A program made the position numbers and the translations under genes. Source: Minisyncoccota bacterium (lineage in GTDB: Bacteria; Patescibacteriota; Minisyncoccia; Phycocordibacterales; GCA-2747955). From it: a stretch of 34,139 nt of DNA. The DNA is taken from positions 1-34,139 of the forward strand of contig CALGNJ010000049.1 of the NCBI GenBank assembly GCA_937958705.1, in the 5' to 3' direction. Under the pieces are notes generated by a model. That model had not been told where the DNA came from, searched no databases, and saw only the letters and a list, made by a program, of their open reading frames with translations. Shown piece by piece: positions 2,373 to 34,139 of this stretch; the stretch's first letter is position 1; every line of letters begins with the position of its first letter.

Positions 2373-4193
2373 CTATTCTGTAACAACCAAGAACCCTTCT
2401 ACATTCCTAAATTCCATAACCGCTCCATCTTCTATCTGCGCGCTTACTCCAACAAGATACAGAACTCCTTGTTCAAACGTAATAGCATGTGGTGGATTAT
2501 CACTAGAAAATCCAAAGCTACTCGTCTCGTCAAATATAAACTCACTCAACTGTTTTGTAATATCTTCTTGGTCTTGTATCCCTGACTTCAAAAAATTGAT
2601 AGTCACTCGATTACCTGCTGTTACACCAAATGGAGTCTTCTTTTCGGTGTATGATTGAATATTAGTAACAGATTCTGAATCGCGTGTATCAATAGTAAAC
2701 CCAGAATGACTTGCGTACCAAGACCTCATAGTTTTCTCATTATTGCCTCTTGTAGACCTCACATATTCAGGAAGACCAATATATGAGAGTAACGCTGAAG
2801 AACCCGCATATGAAGACTCTGTATCTTTTAGAATTGTGTTGTATGAATCACCAACCAAGTCCTTAAGACTCTCACAGCCATGATTTGCACAAATGTACGC
2901 GACAGTAGAAACCATACTATCTTGATCGTCCCGCGGTATGTTTTCAAGCCGTTGCGTAGAAAGTGTCTCCAGTCCTTCCTTGGTTATGATACCGTGAACG
3001 GTAAACAAATTCTGTAACTTATTTACTTGGGATCGCTCAGAGACAGCAAACATGCCCCATGGGCCAGTAAGAACTATGAGTAGCCCAACAAACAATGATG
3101 CTGGCAACACAAACAGCGACTTCTTTCTTGAAAAGATGTAATACAAACATAAAAAAGAAATCCAAACTCCAAACGCGACTACCAAGTATCTATTAATGGT
3201 AAACCCATGTTGCGCGATACGTAAACCAATTGCATAAAAAAGCATAACCATTTGAGGTGCCAGGACATACGGGAACCACTTTCTAAAAATCGAGACTAAT
3301 TGCTCATCTCGTACTTGATATGAAAAAAAGAACGTGATGAAACCAAAAAATGAAAAGATAATTACCATCCACGCAACCACTCCCTCTGGCCACTGGCTAA
3401 ATTGTAATAACACTTTAATTGAATATGCGTACAAAATAGCAAAATATATTCCTATAAACGGCAATGCTAGATACCGAATAACAAAACGTAAGAATTTCTT
3501 AAATACATCTCCTTGCATCTGGCTCACATGTATCTTTTCTGGGACATGCGAAAGAAAGTATACGGGTCCAATAAGTGTCATAGAAACAACCACCCATTGC
3601 AAATACCATTCATCAGATATTGAAAGTGAAAAGAGCGTATCGAGTGATGCTAGTGTTGCAGCACCTAAAATGAGTGAAAGTAGAGCAACCAAAACACCCT
3701 GACTTATTGCCAAAAGCTGTGAGAGTACGAAAAGATAAAATGGCTCATCTTCATAAGTATCAGTACAATATTCTCTCTGAAAACGAGCAGCAAAGGAACC
3801 TACAAGAATAAGAGCCATAATTCCAAATAAAGTAAATATAATCTCGAATGGAACAGCCTGAATTTGGTCTGGAATATAGAGATAGTACATAACACCACAC
3901 ACCACTACCAATACGTATAAAAACCCGCTCCACCAAAAACTCTTACCCTGCCAGGACTCTAGTCCTAAAACTAGTGCATATGAGAGCAGAGCGAGAAACA
4001 CAGAAGTTACAAGAGTTTTAATCAAGATACTATACTCAACAGCTTCATTTCCATAGTCAATATAAATCATGATGGTGCTCACACCAAACAGAACAAGTAA
4101 TGAAACGCTAGTCGCCGGAAATCTATAGACAATCCGTGTTAAGTCGTCCAGTGTAGTCTTGGGTTTTAGTTTGTTATATATTTTTTTAAACAT
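2373..4193 (-). CDS. Multi-pass membrane protein, DUF4153-like
   Basis: About 12 hydrophobic segments plus the RIAQHGFTINRY motif typical of this family. Confidence 0.75.
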   Translation of the reverse strand: MFKKIYNKLKPKTTLDDLTRIVYRFPATSVSLLVLFGVSTIMIYIDYGNEAVEYSILIKTLVTSVFLALLSYALVLGLESWQGKSFWWSGFLYVLVVVCGVMYYLYIPDQIQAVPFEIIFTLFGIMALILVGSFAARFQREYCTDTYEDEPFYLFVLSQLLAISQGVLVALLSLILGAATLASLDTLFSLSISDEWYLQWVVVSMTLIGPVYFLSHVPEKIHVSQMQGDVFKKFLRFVIRYLALPFIGIYFAILYAYSIKVLLQFSQWPEGVVAWMVIIFSFFGFITFFFSYQVRDEQLVSIFRKWFPYVLAPQMVMLFYAIGLRIAQHGFTINRYLVVAFGVWISFLCLYYIFSRKKSLFVLPASLFVGLLIVLTGPWGMFAVSERSQVNKLQNLFTVHGIITKEGLETLSTQRLENIPRDDQDSMVSTVAYICANHGCESLKDLVGDSYNTILKDTESSYAGSSALLSYIGLPEYVRSTRGNNEKTMRSWYASHSGFTIDTRDSESVTNIQSYTEKKTPFGVTAGNRVTINFLKSGIQDQEDITKQLSEFIFDETSSFGFSSDNPPHAITFEQGVLYLVGVSAQIEDGAVMEFRNVEGFLVVTE

Positions 4194-28270: not shown

Positions 28271-28597
28271 ATGAATATATTAAATGGAATTATCTTTGTC
28301 TTTACCGGTGCAATAATCCTACTGGTGCAAGCTGATGTGGTTGCACTCAGCTTTAACTGGGCGTGGCCGAGTTTACTCGCATTATATGGACTCTATCTCA
28401 TTCTTTCTTCTCAACGAAAAATCGTTGAGAAATCAGTGAGCAGAAAAGCTGCAAAACATGAAGCAAAGCTTGAGAAAAAACTAGAAAAAGAGCACATCAA
28501 AGAGAAAAAAGTTCTTGAAGAAAAGATTCAGGAAAAAGATAAACTTGTCGAAGAAGCAGAAGAAGTAATTGACGATATGGTAAATCCAAAACTATAA
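28271..28597 (+). CDS. Hypothetical protein, two TM helices plus charged coiled-coil tail
   Basis: Clean ORF between a divergent and a convergent neighbour; shared terminator. Confidence 0.65.
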   Translation: MNILNGIIFVFTGAIILLVQADVVALSFNWAWPSLLALYGLYLILSSQRKIVEKSVSRKAAKHEAKLEKKLEKEHIKEKKVLEEKIQEKDKLVEEAEEVIDDMVNPKL

Positions 28598-28634
28598 ATG
28601 AAAAAGACGGCTGAGCCGTCTTTTTCATTTATAG
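28592..28634. terminator. Bidirectional terminator, 20-bp perfect inverted repeat
   Basis: CTATAAATGAAAAAGACGGC-tga-GCCGTCTTTTTCATTTATAG; contains both convergent TAA stops. Confidence 0.85.
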
Positions 28635-29186
28635 TACCTTTCTTGTTGAGTATCGAGCCAAGAAGACAAGCCAAAGAATTACTAAGAATACAGTAAGTGC
28701 CATCAGTGGAATAGTAATGAATCCCCAGATCAAAACATGGTTTGTGGTGCATGATGGGATAATCCCAATTCCAGAACACGGCATCGTTAATATATTGTCG
28801 AAGATAGCCACCTGTACGTGAAAGTAGTAATGCACCGAAGCAAAGAAGGATCCGATTGCTGCGAGTATTCCTATAATTATCTCGTTGAATTTAATTTTTT
28901 TCCAAACAGTCACCAAAACAATAACATCTATTGGGAACATGAAAATTCTTTGCCACCAACAGTACTCACACACCGGTGTTTTATACACAAACTGATACAC
29001 AAGTGCCCCAATGGTTGCAAGGATAGAGAGCACTCCAATTAATTTTATATATACAAAATAATCTACTCCCTGCATCTTCACACGTGCCTGTCTTGAAAAA
29101 GCAAATGCCAGAATACTTATAATTGTAGTAATTGACAGCAACACAAGTGCCGCCGAAAGCACTACCGAATATTGTTCTAAGTTCAT
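28629..29186 (-). CDS. DsbB/BdbC family disulfide bond formation protein
   Basis: PVCEYCWWQRIFMFP, second Cys pair PCSG...SC, GFITIPLMAL. Confidence 0.92.
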   Translation of the reverse strand: MNLEQYSVVLSAALVLLSITTIISILAFAFSRQARVKMQGVDYFVYIKLIGVLSILATIGALVYQFVYKTPVCEYCWWQRIFMFPIDVIVLVTVWKKIKFNEIIIGILAAIGSFFASVHYYFHVQVAIFDNILTMPCSGIGIIPSCTTNHVLIWGFITIPLMALTVFLVILWLVFLARYSTRKVL

Positions 29187-29305: not shown

Positions 29306-29783
29306 TTACTTAACTAATGCTAATGCGGCACTTGCATACGTATAAATATAATCTTTTAATCGGTCATCATCTCTATACATCTTGTCGAGTTCATCTTTTG
29401 TAACCCAGACACATTCTGCGTTCAGACTCGCCTTCTCCTGAGGATTTATTTCTCTTGTGTCTGATTTTGCCACAAACACAAAAGCTGAGTGATCATGAAA
29501 CTCATTAAATTGAGTGCCTATTAATAAATAGAGGTGGCACCAAATCTTTATTGTCTTGAAATGTTTGATGCATCCATGAACTTGGACCTACTAGCTCCGG
29601 TTTTATACCTACCTCTTCCCATACTTCCCTTAAAACGGCTTCGTTAATATCTTCTCCCGGATCAACATGGCCGCCTGGGACAATCCAGATGTTGTATTTC
29701 TCATGCAGCCTTAAAAGGACCGCGCCATCGTTCACAATATACGCATCTGCGCAAAAGTCTAGGTAATAATTTTGATGTGCCAT
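29306..29783 (-). pseudogene. NUDIX hydrolase with a one-base frameshift (pseudogene or assembly error)
   Basis: Nudix box PGGHVDPGEDINEAVLREVWEEVG. Stop at 29505, but removing one base near 29508 restores NEFHDHSAFVFVAK...ECVWVTKDEL...YASAALALVK* (span 478 nt = 159 codons + 1). Confidence 0.8.
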
Positions 29784-30990: not shown

Positions 30991-31018
30991 AAAACCTCAC
31001 TCATGTTTGTGAGTGAGG
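30989..31018 (-). terminator. Terminator of the 31036..31227 ORF
   Basis: CCTCACTCA-tgtttg-TGAGTGAGG with an A-tract on the left (U-tract on the minus strand). Confidence 0.65.
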
Positions 31019-31035
31019 CACCAGAAAGCAAGAGA

Positions 31036-31419: not shown

Positions 31420-31803
31420 ATGAAGACTTTAATTCGTCTTTTCGTCCCTATGGCAGTCTTTGGCATTGTTCATATTGCAATGGCTAATGTTGAGCAGTCC
31501 ATTGACTTACGATATACAGAGCTTGAGTCTGTATACATAACCACAACTGCGGTTGCTGGACTCATCTGTGCAATATGGGCATTAGTCTGCATACTCATCA
31601 GAAAATATGCTGATTTTGGCGTAGCTCTCATGATGTTTTATACAATGCATATGGGTGTTGTACTCTTCTTGGGATGCTCAAATGGTATGCCCGAACCTGC
31701 CCCACCATTCATGCTTGCGCTAACGATAGGTATGGCTTGTGCTGGAGCTATCGGTTGGTTAGTTGCTTCATTCTCGAACGCAACAGAGCCAGAAAAAATA
31801 TAA
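31420..31803 (+). CDS. Hypothetical membrane protein (about 4 hydrophobic segments)
   Basis: Own promoter; CTCACC...GGTGAG plus T-tract terminator at 31805-31848. Confidence 0.65.
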   Translation: MKTLIRLFVPMAVFGIVHIAMANVEQSIDLRYTELESVYITTTAVAGLICAIWALVCILIRKYADFGVALMMFYTMHMGVVLFLGCSNGMPEPAPPFMLALTIGMACAGAIGWLVASFSNATEPEKI

Positions 31804-31855
31804 TCTCACCGAGATGTAGGAAACTTCATCATTCAGGTGAGGTTTTTTATATCAA

Positions 31856-31967
31856 AATCGTTCGAGCCTTCCCCTTCCAGGTATTCTAAAACCCTTGGTG
31901 ACAAGGGCTTAGAAAAGTGCTGACAAAGCTTAAAAAAGTTCGAACCAGTGTGGTGGAGGTGAGAGGT
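31856..31967. repeat. Direct repeat copy 1 (37-bp invariant core 31918-31954; tmRNA/tRNA-Ala-like 3' fragment 31951-31967)
   Basis: Core TGCTGACAAAGCTTAAAAAAGTTCGAACCAGTGTGGT identical in three copies; inner palindrome TTCTAAAACCCTTG-gtga-CAAGGGCTTAGAA. Confidence 0.95.
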
Positions 31968-31974
31968 ATTTAAG

Positions 31975-32385
31975 CTAAGAGAAAAGTAATTCGGCCAACA
32001 TCTTTATCACCTCTTGATGTTCTTCGGTACCCTCCTGCGCTATATAAACAGCTAATTCATCAAGAGTAAAATCTCTGTAGGCTGGAACGAGACCATTTGC
32101 TTCACAGACTATCTCAAATGTCATGCATGCCGTTCTCTTGTTTCCATCTGTAAACGCATGGTCTTTCACAAGAAACCAAAGATACGCTACACACTTTTCT
32201 TCTGTTGTTTTATAAAAATCCTGACCACCAAAAGAACCAAGGATGTTTCCAACTAACGCATCAACTTTAGATTCTGATTCTTGAGCAATCATAAAAGAAA
32301 CTTCACCTTGTTGATGAAGAATCTTATATATTCGACAGATGTGCTTTGACTCGAGAGGTTGAAATGTCTTTTTTCCCTTCGTCAT
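31975..32385 (-). CDS. Fic/Doc (death-on-curing) family toxin
   Basis: HAFTDGNKRT Doc-type Fic motif preceded by EEKCVAYLWFLVKD. Confidence 0.9.
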   Translation of the reverse strand: MTKGKKTFQPLESKHICRIYKILHQQGEVSFMIAQESESKVDALVGNILGSFGGQDFYKTTEEKCVAYLWFLVKDHAFTDGNKRTACMTFEIVCEANGLVPAYRDFTLDELAVYIAQEGTEEHQEVIKMLAELLFS

Positions 32386-32497
32386 ACTGTTTTAATGAGC
32401 TTAATACTTGTTTATTTTGCTTAATTTTACGCATTGCCAAAGACCTGAATTTCACATCAGTTCTTTTTTTGGTAAATTTTTGTAACAAGTTATTCAT
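32324..32497 (-). CDS. 57-aa basic protein, candidate antitoxin (not in ORF track)
   Basis: MNNLLQKFTKKRTDVKFRSLAMRKIKQNKQVLSSLKQYDEGKKDISTSRVKAHLSNI; TGaTAAAAT 6 nt before ATG; overlaps the 5' end of the Doc gene by 62 nt. Confidence 0.65.
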   Translation of the reverse strand: MNNLLQKFTKKRTDVKFRSLAMRKIKQNKQVLSSLKQYDEGKKDISTSRVKAHLSNI

Positions 32498-32553
32498 GTG
32501 ATTATTTTATCATAATTATAAAGAATATCTTTATACCGATTTTTACAACAAGA

Positions 32554-32664
32554 AATGATTCGAGCCTCCCTTTCCAGACATTCTAAAACTCTTGGTAACA
32601 AGGGCTTAGAAAAATGCTGACAAAGCTTAAAAAAGTTCGAACCAGTGTGGTAGAGATGAGGGGT
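32554..32664. repeat. Direct repeat copy 2 (core 32615-32651; tmRNA/tRNA-Ala-like fragment 32648-32664)
   Basis: Aligns with copy 1 over its full length; ends TGGTAGAGATGAGGGGT. Confidence 0.95.
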
Positions 32665-32697
32665 TGTTTGGTATAGATATCAAATAATGTGGTTACT

Positions 32698-33441
32698 TTA
32701 ATTTGCCTCCAACGTGCTCTTCACATGTATCTTTGCTAATTTCCACTCAGGAAACTCATACAAATAAGATGCGTTAACCGAAAGATTTACCTCAGAATTA
32801 AAAGACTCGATTATCAGGAAATTATATCCTACCTCTTCCTGCATGACTGGTTCTTTGGTAATAATGACATGTTCACTCAAAACAGGTGGGAATGTTTTTC
32901 CTGCATCAATATTTTCTGGTAAAAGCTCTTGGTTTAATTCTGATAAAGAAATTTGGTTTTTCCATAATTGTGAGATATGAACGTCATACATTTCCTTCAT
33001 AGTTCCTAGATACATACCTCTTTGCAATAAAGTATGTGTTTGGAGATTTAGCCATTTAAGCTCCTCAGCAGAAGGAATTTCCGCCTTAGTATCATGTCCA
33101 TCTGATGCATTTACTCTAGTTAAAGTCTCTTGATTAACTATTAGCGTATCCTTATCTACTAACTGATAATCAAAGTTCTTTGCAAGAAATAGTAAACCTG
33201 CAGAAAAATTCTCTTTTCCAAATGACTGCATTGGCGCCTTCAGCGAATAGCTTGTTTTTTCTCCTTCTGTTTTATACGAAACACGCCCCTGAGAGAACAC
33301 CTGTAAGGTTGTGTTGTTGCTTGACCATGCCCCAACAATATTTTCATACCCATCTATCTGAGGATTATGAGTTAAGTTCGTAACCACATAAGCCCCTAGC
33401 AGCATAATTACGAGCCCTACGATTATAAATACTTTTTTCAT
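32698..33441 (-). CDS. Hypothetical secreted/membrane-anchored protein, 247 aa
   Basis: MKK plus hydrophobic anchor; IVGAW motif; TGcTATAAT 6 nt before ATG. Confidence 0.75.
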   Translation of the reverse strand: MKKVFIIVGLVIMLLGAYVVTNLTHNPQIDGYENIVGAWSSNNTTLQVFSQGRVSYKTEGEKTSYSLKAPMQSFGKENFSAGLLFLAKNFDYQLVDKDTLIVNQETLTRVNASDGHDTKAEIPSAEELKWLNLQTHTLLQRGMYLGTMKEMYDVHISQLWKNQISLSELNQELLPENIDAGKTFPPVLSEHVIITKEPVMQEEVGYNFLIIESFNSEVNLSVNASYLYEFPEWKLAKIHVKSTLEAN

Positions 33442-33456
33442 AAACTCATTATAGCA

Positions 33457-33556
33457 AATGGTTCAAGCTTCCTCTTTCCGGCTATTCCAAAAGCCTTGGC
33501 AACAAGATCTCTATAAAATGCTGACAAAGCTTAAAAAAGTTCGAACCAGTGTGGTG
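33457..33556. repeat. Direct repeat copy 3 (core 33519-33555), more diverged left arm
   Basis: Same 37-bp core; left part AATGGTTCAAGCTTCCTCTTTCCGGCTATTCCAAAAGCCTTGGCAACAAG aligns with copies 1 and 2. Confidence 0.92.
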
Positions 33557-33641
33557 CAAGCACGCACTAACTGTGTATTTACGTAGATATGAATTTATGT
33601 TTTAATATAACTCGATATAGCTCATTAGATGGAGAGAAAAA

Positions 33642-34139
33642 ATGACTAAAGCACCACAACGTTTCATGCTGAATGTAATGAACGATACTAAGCTGGACTC
33701 AGGAGGAAGAGCGGTTATGTTCCCTGTCGCAAAGACAAGAAAAGGAACTGTAATTTTTGCTACCTGTGCTCATGCAGTCGAGAATCACTCTGGGCGCATC
33801 CAAATGACAGTCTTTGACCACAACGGCGAGAATGTAGAGTATGCTGGTAATACTCAGAACTGGATTATTCCACCAGAGATTGGCGCTGACTTAGTTTTCA
33901 TTGATATGCCTGTCTCAGATATATCTAAATTCCAGCCAGTGCGTCTTCAAAAAGACAAAGTCTCAACAGGAAAAGATATTACATACACCAGAAATGTAAT
34001 GTACAAAAAAGACTTTCCTGAACAAATCCTCTTAACAGAGACAAGCCCAGTAAAACACATCAAAACAGAAACATATGCTCGGAGCTCTAAAGGTTTTGAT
34101 ACCCTACCTACTGGTCATAATTCGAGAGGTAGAAATTAC
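33642..34139 (+). CDS. Trypsin-like serine protease, 3'-truncated by the window end
   Basis: Hand translation is open for 166 codons: MTKAPQRF...FATCAHAV...GADLVFID (His and Asp triad motifs); GGAG upstream. The Ser motif is not reached. Confidence 0.6.
   Translation, partial: MTKAPQRFMLNVMNDTKLDSGGRAVMFPVAKTRKGTVIFATCAHAVENHSGRIQMTVFDHNGENVEYAGNTQNWIIPPEIGADLVFIDMPVSDISKFQPVRLQKDKVSTGKDITYTRNVMYKKDFPEQILLTETSPVKHIKTETYARSSKGFDTLPTGHNSRGRNY

Follow-up and report, generated by a model that had tools for sequence, protein, structure and literature searches.

A tandem array of single-gene units with an invariant repeat core at tRNA-Gln(CUG) in a patescibacterial genome

INTRODUCTION

How do bacteria with tiny genomes gather accessory genes, and could an array of repeat-bounded genes in one of them be a device for doing so? 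Patescibacteria (candidate phyla radiation, CPR) are thought to hold few mobile elements in their tiny genomes, and their acquisition of accessory and defense genes is poorly understood. Near the end of contig CALGNJ010000049.1 of a Minisyncoccota assembly (GCA_937958705.1), three copies of a repeat, here called R1 to R3, separate gene-sized units. The window analyzed here is this whole contig (C49, 34,139 nt), and its source genome, G000, is a 607-kb assembly of 49 contigs with ~40% GC and 86% completeness; G001 and G002 are relatives in the same genus. An earlier reading of the sequence alone had described the locus as a cassette-like array of units that would be mobilized in trans by a site-specific recombinase. 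This idea is broadly right but incomplete, since the units are indeed gene-sized, free of recombinases and set between conserved sites, but the anchor of the array at a gene for tRNA-Gln(CUG) had been missed. On balance we favor the serial insertion of integrase-less cassettes at the 3' end of this tRNA gene, the repeats being the junction sites of the resulting tandem array.

RESULTS AND DISCUSSION

An invariant core beside drifting arms

The core of the repeat, 37 nt long, occurs exactly three times in the window, always on the plus strand and with no mismatch, while none of 100 shuffled windows gave any match. The periods are 697 nt (R1 to R2) and 904 nt (R2 to R3), and the core positions and spacing given in the sequence-only reading were therefore exact. 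The full direct repeat spans ~100-125 nt around the core; a repeat search returned a single direct-repeat family of 98 nt, whose other copies are 91% and 76% identical to R1. In the order of window coordinates, the parts of the three copies are as follows.

31860..31880, minus strand: R1, part X', the tRNA-Gln(CUG) 3' end (from T-loop to acceptor 3' strand) in an inverted, slightly diverged copy; alignment score 22, reached by 0/500 shuffles
31883..31914, no strand: R1, part H, central dyad TTCTAA..CCCTTG-loop-CAAGGG..TTAGAA, present in every predicted fold
31918..31954, minus strand: R1, core (X*), invariant 37 nt, on the minus strand with T-loop-like GGTTCGAAC at its start and acceptor-like TGTCAGCA at its end
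31955..31975, no strand: R1, right flank, conserved with the R2 flank and the G002 flank
32557..32675, minus strand: R2, with X' at 32557-32577 (score 25, 0/500 shuffles), dyad at 32580-32611, core at 32615-32651 and flank at 32652-32675
33460..33555, minus strand: R3, with X' at 33460-33481 (score 19, 2/500 shuffles), decayed dyad at 33484-33516 and intact core at 33519-33555

The arms have drifted and the core has not, as had also been claimed: arm identity is 53/62 between R1 and R2 and 43/62 for both R1-R3 and R2-R3 (69-86%), versus 37/37 in the core. At these rates of drift, the chance of 37 identical core bases would be about 0.003 and 1e-6. Since equal drift would rarely leave a 37-mer unchanged, the core must be constrained; selection acts on this part of the repeat, which probably serves as the side for protein binding or crossover. 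R3 combines a decayed dyad with an intact core. To the right of the core, conservation runs ~20 nt further in R1 and R2, but not in R3, whose right flank is unlike the other two. The right half of the core and the adjoining flank are retained in G002, although syntenic DNA of that genome is only 68-82% identical. In the G002 copy, the outer C-G pair of the dyad is replaced by T-A, a compensatory change; a GNRA loop for the arm hairpin was considered and dropped because the G002 loop is ATAA.

The array starts at tRNA-Gln(CUG)

Outside the three copies of the window, the core was found nowhere else in G000. However, the end of contig C21 (13658-13724) has another left arm, 92% identical and lacking the core. 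This fourth arm lies directly 3' of tRNA-Gln(CUG), which is encoded on the strand opposite to the plus strand of the window, and the core of the other copies stands where the real 3' end of the tRNA stands at this first junction. All occurrences in G000, three full copies and one arm, thus belong to this array and its tRNA-Gln junction. Dispersal through the genome, which the sequence-only reading had named as evidence against itself, was not observed, and we rejected a dispersed repetitive extragenic palindrome (REP) or miniature inverted-repeat transposable element (MITE), as the copies are confined to one locus. Of the further copies and linked recombinase that were to be looked for past position 34139, the fourth arm was found and the recombinase was not.

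The two contigs are connected by a gene. The window ends within an open reading frame (ORF) for a trypsin-like peptidase, 88% identical to a full-length homolog, P0001 (236 aa), and at the end of C21 an ORF fragment encodes IKKYL plus nine residues and a stop, matching the C-terminus of P0001 (this 14-residue match was made by eye; tblastn did not report it). There are no sequence overlaps among contig ends. We take the two pieces as the ends of one peptidase gene, so that the contig ends adjoin with ~55 codons missing, and the array is therefore complete, with three units of ~0.7-0.95 kb and no recombinase inside. In the tRNA direction, the locus begins with tRNA-Gln, arm 4 (H, X'), a terminator and the peptidase gene (reverse); core 3, arm 3 (H, X') and a gene for a 247-aa protein come next, followed by core 2, arm 2 (H, X'), a small antitoxin-like ORF and a Doc toxin gene; it ends with core 1 and arm 1 (H, X'), after which the chromosome resumes with a terminator and a membrane-protein gene (reverse), whose hairpin is listed here.

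31806..31848, plus strand: terminator-like hairpin of the membrane-protein gene (31420-31803), read in the sequence

Another copy of tRNA sequence lies on the other side of the tRNA genes. A direct copy (27-29 nt) of the tRNA 5' half, up to the anticodon stem, is found ~75-100 nt upstream of both tRNA-Gln genes, at 13488-13514 of C21 (L013), upstream of tRNA-Gln(UUG) on C38 and in G002 (L002), being conserved between G000 and G002.

The site is built from the tRNA end

Three parts make each repeat a quasi-palindrome: the core, which reads as a degenerate tRNA 3' end, the central dyad hairpin, and the 3' end of tRNA-Gln in inverted form. The latter makes up the distal 21-24 nt of all four arms, slightly diverged and running from the T-loop to the acceptor 3' strand, with alignment scores of 19-29; those of R1-R3 were reached by 0-2 of 500 shuffles. 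In the tRNA direction, the core starts with GGTTCGAAC and ends with TGTCAGCA, close to the TGTCCAGCA of the tRNA with extra bases between. Where the R sites and the junction at the tRNA agree in sequence, the agreement starts at CAGCA, only 3-5 nt within the tRNA, and extends over ~60 nt of the trailer. The palindrome that the tRNA end makes with the dyad and the inverted copy at the C21 junction is ~85 nt long and has a predicted energy of about -25 kcal/mol (z of -6.2 and -7.2), and none of 200 shuffles was as stable. The repeats within the window had been described as structured, which holds for a local dyad of 6-13 bp and terminal inverted repeats of 8-10 nt only, and not for the folding of R1-R3 as a whole (see below).

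As already noted from the sequence alone, the sites do not have the boxes of integron attC sites: we found no RYYYAAC...GTTRRRY pair (45-130 nt apart) on either strand of 31700-33700, where shuffles gave a mean of 0.69. With the boxes absent, no integron integrase (IntI) found in G000 and R1-R3 not forming stable hairpins, an integron or attC identity was rejected. The same fate befell a dif-type site, because the core has no matching arm pair (9-12 nt with a 4-9-nt spacer); of the dif-like dyads, three lie in the unique flank of R2, and the sole one within the repeat forms the arm's central hairpin (7/9, spacer of 4). Clustered regularly interspaced short palindromic repeats (CRISPR) are ruled out by the spacing, the verdict reached before. 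ARAGORN found nothing in the window, and no known RNA family emerged: Rfam 15 gave no match at the gathering score in the window, and in 31700-33700 only sub-threshold matches at chance level (E up to 10). A terminator scan did not call the arm hairpin.

Insertions of the same grammar at other tRNAs

Within 130 nt downstream of nine of the 23 tRNA genes in G000 there is a high-scoring inverted copy of the respective 3' end, versus one of 23 in the upstream control. The layout at these genes is a tRNA, a terminator-like hairpin, the inverted copy, a conserved element of ~100 nt and a direct copy of the tRNA end. The inverted copy is often split by a small hairpin, the direct copy starts in the T-loop, and a second unit sometimes follows in tandem. 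In the hairpin of the ~100-nt element, 7 of 14 pairs show compensatory changes, and G-U pairs occur on the tRNA strand; Rfam recognized nothing but tRNAs at these loci.

G000 contigs C5, C7, C8, C12, C28, C36, C38 and C45 (L033-L040), and L041-L051 in other genomes: loci of the ~100-nt element

By a covariance model, 31 of 61 relatives have the element, a single genome having as many as 11 copies. Of 11 loci retrieved outside G000, eight have a tRNA gene in the same orientation 60-90 nt upstream; the inverted copy was present in all seven examined, and the direct copy was near-perfect in six of them. One case is the orthologous tRNA-Ser(GGA), which in G002 is occupied by a clean insertion of ~190 nt with an 18-nt duplication of the tRNA end, and in G000 is empty with an orthologous downstream flank. 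This occupied and empty pair indicates that tRNA 3' ends do receive insertions of such units.

The tRNA-Gln array shares with this family, in the same genome and lineage, the order of tRNA end, hairpin, inverted end copy, payload and direct copy, as well as the tandem iteration. They differ in the payload, a conserved structured sequence of ~100 nt in the family and protein genes in the array, and in the direct copy, usually a near-perfect 17-20 nt in the former and the degenerate core in the latter. The array is devoid of the ~100-nt element itself, whose model scored no more than weakly there (11.8 bits at R1 and 10.5 bits at R2, in both cases on the opposite strand). Present in 31 of 61 related genomes, the tRNA-trailing insertions point to a common mechanism, of which we found no description; the article records covered by our literature search contained nothing on such elements.

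The cargo is accessory

31975..32385, minus strand: cargo 1a, Doc/Fic-family toxin, 136 aa (Pfam Fic/DOC, E 1.8e-8; PADLOC PDC-S23, E 3e-21)
32324..32497, minus strand: cargo 1b, basic ORF of 57 aa, antitoxin-like, overlapping the Doc start, with no family match
32698..33441, minus strand: cargo 2, orphan protein of 247 aa with an N-terminal hydrophobic anchor
33642..34139, plus strand: cargo 3, trypsin-like peptidase, N-terminal 166 aa; the C-terminus is on contig C21, followed by the terminator, the fourth arm and tRNA-Gln(CUG)

The three payloads are all accessory and strain-variable, and the invariance among relatives that would have told against the earlier reading was not observed. The Doc toxin (32.8 bits against TIGR01550 DOC_P1, under the cut-off of that model) is patchy, with matches in 16 of 60 other relatives and none in the genus. 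At both Doc loci inspected in other families, a small overlapping ORF with a shared motif lies upstream of the toxin gene; since this ORF recurs in two other families, the toxin-antitoxin (TA)-like pair is a real two-gene module. Repeats comparable to those of the array were absent from the flanks of Doc homologs in other genomes (five loci), one of which has a tRNA gene nearby (tRNA-Tyr in L029, ~1 kb from the Doc gene).

The 247-aa protein has no match in Pfam, NCBIfam, PHROG or PADLOC, its gene matches none of 60 relatives, and in the Atlas its best score was 0.81, with only leads below 0.9. The peptidase was found in one other of 400 genomes of the order. Its homolog P0001 matches Trypsin_2 at E 5e-4, below the cut-off, and a search of viral contigs with it retrieved no relative.

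Each interval between repeats does hold a single minus-strand unit without a recombinase, as described from the sequence alone, but the promoter ascribed to each was only partly recovered. Upstream of the 247-aa gene, a TGnTATAAT box ends 7 nt before the ATG with no Shine-Dalgarno sequence (33442-33458, minus strand), which suggests a leaderless mRNA. The small ORF upstream of Doc likewise shows only a -10-like box (32498-32530, minus strand), and a consensus promoter scan upstream of the two minus-strand units called no promoter. ORFs and family scans revealed no integration or transfer genes in the three units, and no recombinase is encoded there.

Relatives and strains differ around the array

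DNA synteny with G001 and G002 ends near position 28520, and from there to the end of the window only the repeats match. In G002, a patatin-like gene 0.85 kb from tRNA-Gln has on one side a right half of the core, together with a flank like that of R2, and on the other an arm that GTCAGCG precedes; past the core-right half, confidence in the alignment is low. In G001, the syntenic block gives way to two unrelated genes, one coding for a Fic protein, and then to tRNA-Gln(CUG), whose 3' end recurs as a 17/18-nt direct copy ~100 nt downstream (L010, contig C5 of G001, ~3330-3450, minus strand). This copy is the scar of a small insertion and speaks for a hot spot at this tRNA gene. On its 5' side, this tRNA gene is accompanied by a Fic-domain gene and a gene of the endonuclease/exonuclease/phosphatase family.

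Among public sequencing runs, X2 and X3 gave nothing and only X1 has the locus; its Logan contigs are at a depth of ~4-5, with rare forms dropped. They contain G002-type junctions and one further full copy of the repeat in another context, with no difference listed inside the core. A variant contig leaves the window sequence at 31801, and a deeper one diverges at a second hairpin.

30994..31019, minus strand: terminator hairpin, strain-variable boundary, where the deeper X1 contig (depth 9.1) diverges from the window

The X1 contigs break inside each core, with records ending or starting at 31912/31929 and 33544/33527, so that unit order across the 37-nt repeat depends on the original assembly.

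Among the first 60 relatives, the repeat matched in G002 only. The core pattern was found in public genome contigs only on a G002 contig, and in no metagenome or viral contig; the arm pattern gave two metagenome matches, with nothing in common beyond the pattern, and none in viral contigs. With R2 as a DNA query, 13 of 400 genomes of the order besides G000 gave matches of only ~20 nt (E 7e-4 to 0.007), which we take as chance.

Two other features lie between the end of synteny and the array. A perfect 22-nt inverted repeat with 1 nt between its halves, a bidirectional terminator, occupies 28591-28635, and a NUDIX hydrolase appears split into two adjacent ORFs at 29306-29783 on the minus strand (92 aa with the NUDIX domain, then 57 aa), which may be a broken gene.

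Recombinases of the host

Two tyrosine recombinases are encoded by G000, an Xer-like one on C30 and a prophage integrase on C22. Neither is near the array and neither is of the integron type (130 and 85 bits against TIGR02249, with a cut-off of 265). The Xer-type enzyme is the only recombinase conserved in all three genomes of the genus. No serine recombinase or reverse transcriptase was detected in G000, nor an IS110-type enzyme, which was missing from all five genomes searched for it.

Other transposition enzymes were considered for the tRNA-trailing element and rejected, as their presence does not track it over 21 genomes. TnpB-type domains occur in two of these and not in G000. Y1 transposase-like genes occur in 12; six genomes have both gene and element, five the element only, six the gene only and four neither. 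G000 has two ORFs of 215-268 aa with weak Y1 (IS200-like) transposase domains on C7 (1419-1730 and 48472-48663). C22 (L011, 7741 nt, GC 0.379) is a phage-like contig on which the tyrosine integrase comes first, followed by genes for an exonuclease, a single-stranded DNA-binding protein (SSB), a DnaD-like loader, a polymerase-exonuclease and a deoxynucleoside monophosphate (dNMP) kinase; it has no similarity to the repeat.

Serial insertion and its alternatives

Considering the tRNA-Gln anchor and a repeat built from the tRNA end, the locus is to be placed with tRNA-targeted insertion systems, and not as a free-standing new type of array. We propose that site-specific recombination would have added units lacking a recombinase to the 3' end of tRNA-Gln in succession, each bringing its payload and one copy of the site. 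The crossover would lie near GTCAGCA/CAGCA, and the enzyme would be supplied in trans; mobility of the array is suggested by comparative anatomy. The locus is unusual in its single-gene units, its quasi-palindromic site of ~100 nt, a core that is invariant yet degenerate, and its tie to a lineage-wide family of tRNA-trailing elements. If this is true, single-gene cassettes stacked at a tRNA in this way would give Patescibacteria a compact means of capturing genes.

Several observations weigh against serial insertion. The X1 contigs (a single run at a depth of ~5) contain no excision circle, empty site or other joint for the array, so the circles and empty-site junctions that the sequence-only reading had looked toward did not appear, and no cognate recombinase was found in the 86%-complete G000. 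The core is not usable as a tRNA 3' end; its likeness to the tRNA consists only of GGTTCGA plus TGTC-AGCA and is not significant alone, 31-34 of 500 shuffles scoring equally. As single-stranded DNA, R1-R3 fold no better than shuffles on either strand (z of -1.67 to +0.56). No further copy of the tRNA end was found beyond R1, so the simple model does not explain the far boundary of the array, and the repeat occurs in two species only, so that the boundaries rest on very few junctions. Finally, the model leaves unexplained why each member carries an inverted copy of its own target tRNA, which could stem from tRNA-specific lineages, from templating by the tRNA or from a folded single-stranded site.

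A bolder proposal, which we advance tentatively and regard as unlikely, is that Patescibacteria of this order possess an undescribed tRNA 3'-end insertion system, made into a gene-capture platform at tRNA-Gln(CUG). Each unit may then carry a terminator hairpin and the inverted end of the target tRNA, followed by the direct copy, and targeting would be templated or guided by the tRNA sequence itself and not by a fixed att site. The usual payload may be a structured RNA-like module of ~100 nt, and the stack of single-gene defense and accessory cassettes at tRNA-Gln(CUG) may be a functional analog of an integron. There is some chance that the underlying mechanism of tRNA-directed insertion is itself new. 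If the site copies do reflect templating or guiding by tRNA sequence, the mechanism would be new and possibly programmable, while ordinary tandem accretion of decayed islands would make the locus a tidy, unsurprising example in a new lineage.

The locus may also have done without a dedicated recombinase, although we judge this unlikely. The repeats would then be portable homology and/or terminator-insulator modules copied locally, with homologous recombination exchanging the cargo after uptake. Direct repeats of 37 perfectly identical nt would permit RecA-type exchange, and here ~60 similar nt add to them; no recombinase is linked to the array. Every repeat lies 3' of a minus-strand gene, with a hairpin and then TTTT, as a terminator would, but the terminator scan did not call this hairpin. 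Tandem units with perfect copies at tRNA-Leu and tRNA-Pro resemble simple tandem duplication; however, neutral duplication leaves unexplained an invariant core beside arms that have diverged by 14-31%, the split site around the G002 cargo and, in the sister family, the clean insertion that duplicated 18 nt of its target.

A special form of insertion, which seems to us quite improbable, would involve a folded strand. The halves of the site would mimic the double-stranded 3' end of the tRNA gene, and a host recombinase would join the folded strand to that gene, just as integron attC x attI and CTX-phage attP recombine through a folded single strand. The site next to the tRNA comes close to a perfect palindrome (z about -6 to -7), both halves are kept in every unit, the units have the size of integron cassettes and include a TA pair, and the genus has an Xer-type enzyme as its sole conserved recombinase. 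Yet the poor folding of R1-R3 speaks against it, as do the absence of attC boxes and of an 11-6-11 dif-like palindrome, and the failure to find an integron integrase.

We consider it very improbable that the repeat is a cis-regulatory or small-RNA element (an operator, a processing signal or a tRNA-like minihelix) serving the flanking genes or tRNA-Gln, with the array reflecting its reuse. The strong constraint on the core would fit such a role, as would the covarying hairpin of the sister element with its G-U pairs on the tRNA strand, and the inverted and direct copies of the tRNA end would pair as an acceptor/T-stem-like helix. On the other hand, no Rfam family matches, the variable cargo is left unexplained, and the placement of the repeats is inconsistent, 3' of two genes, 5' of one, as well as between convergent or divergent pairs. 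A selfish REP/MITE-type repeat spreading by itself through ordinary chromosomal genes is scarcely credible: despite 8-10-nt terminal inverted repeats, a quasi-palindromic build and Y1-transposase-like ORFs in G000, there are only four copies, all in one array or junction, the genes between them are accessory, 400 genomes of the order gave no convincing DNA match (G002 being alone among the first 60 relatives), and Y1 presence does not track the sister element.

Comparison with known systems

Chromosomal integron arrays have near-identical attC sites of ~120 nt, and clusters of attC sites lacking an integron integrase are known as CALIN. Like these, the array consists of units of gene size, one of them a TA pair, and each unit has a single, imperfectly palindromic site of ~100 nt; the sites are highly similar within the array, and no recombinase lies inside the units. 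Unlike them, it has no R''/R' boxes, stable R1-R3 hairpins or detected IntI, starts at a tRNA gene and not at attI, and carries cargo with apparent -10 boxes of its own and one unit inverted. The article records covered by our literature search contained nothing on integrons or comparable arrays in Patescibacteria.

Integrative mobile elements exploiting Xer (IMEX) and pdif modules lack a recombinase, sometimes contain TA pairs and gather at one chromosomal site via the host recombinase; CTX-type elements use a folded palindromic single-stranded site. The modules of the array are similarly recombinase-less and include a TA pair, and G000 has an Xer-like enzyme. They differ in having no 28-31-nt dif-like site with an 11-6-11 build, in their target, a tRNA 3' end, and in their direct repeats of ~100 nt.

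The closest parallels are tandem genomic islands. The ssrA islands of Dehalococcoides have, next to the repeat, a conserved motif with no alignment to the target gene (PMC3146451), and integrative and conjugative or mobilizable elements (ICE/IME) and cis-mobilizable elements (CIMEs) accrete in tandem at tRNA/tmRNA-type sites (PMC5704250, section 2.3). The array and such islands and CIMEs agree in units stacked directly downstream of a single tRNA-type gene and bounded, putatively in the case of the array, by a copy of the target 3' end plus an extra conserved, non-aligning motif, in some units without an integration module, and in strain-variable content (PMC3146451, PMC5704250). The array differs in that no integrase-bearing member was seen and in that its direct copy is degenerate yet invariant. 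Its site is quasi-palindromic, ~100 nt long, and contains an inverted copy of the tRNA end. The islands and CIMEs described there measure kilobases to tens of kilobases, whereas the units of the array, in a Patescibacteria-type host with an assembly of ~0.6 Mb, measure 0.7-0.95 kb and hold one gene or a TA pair.

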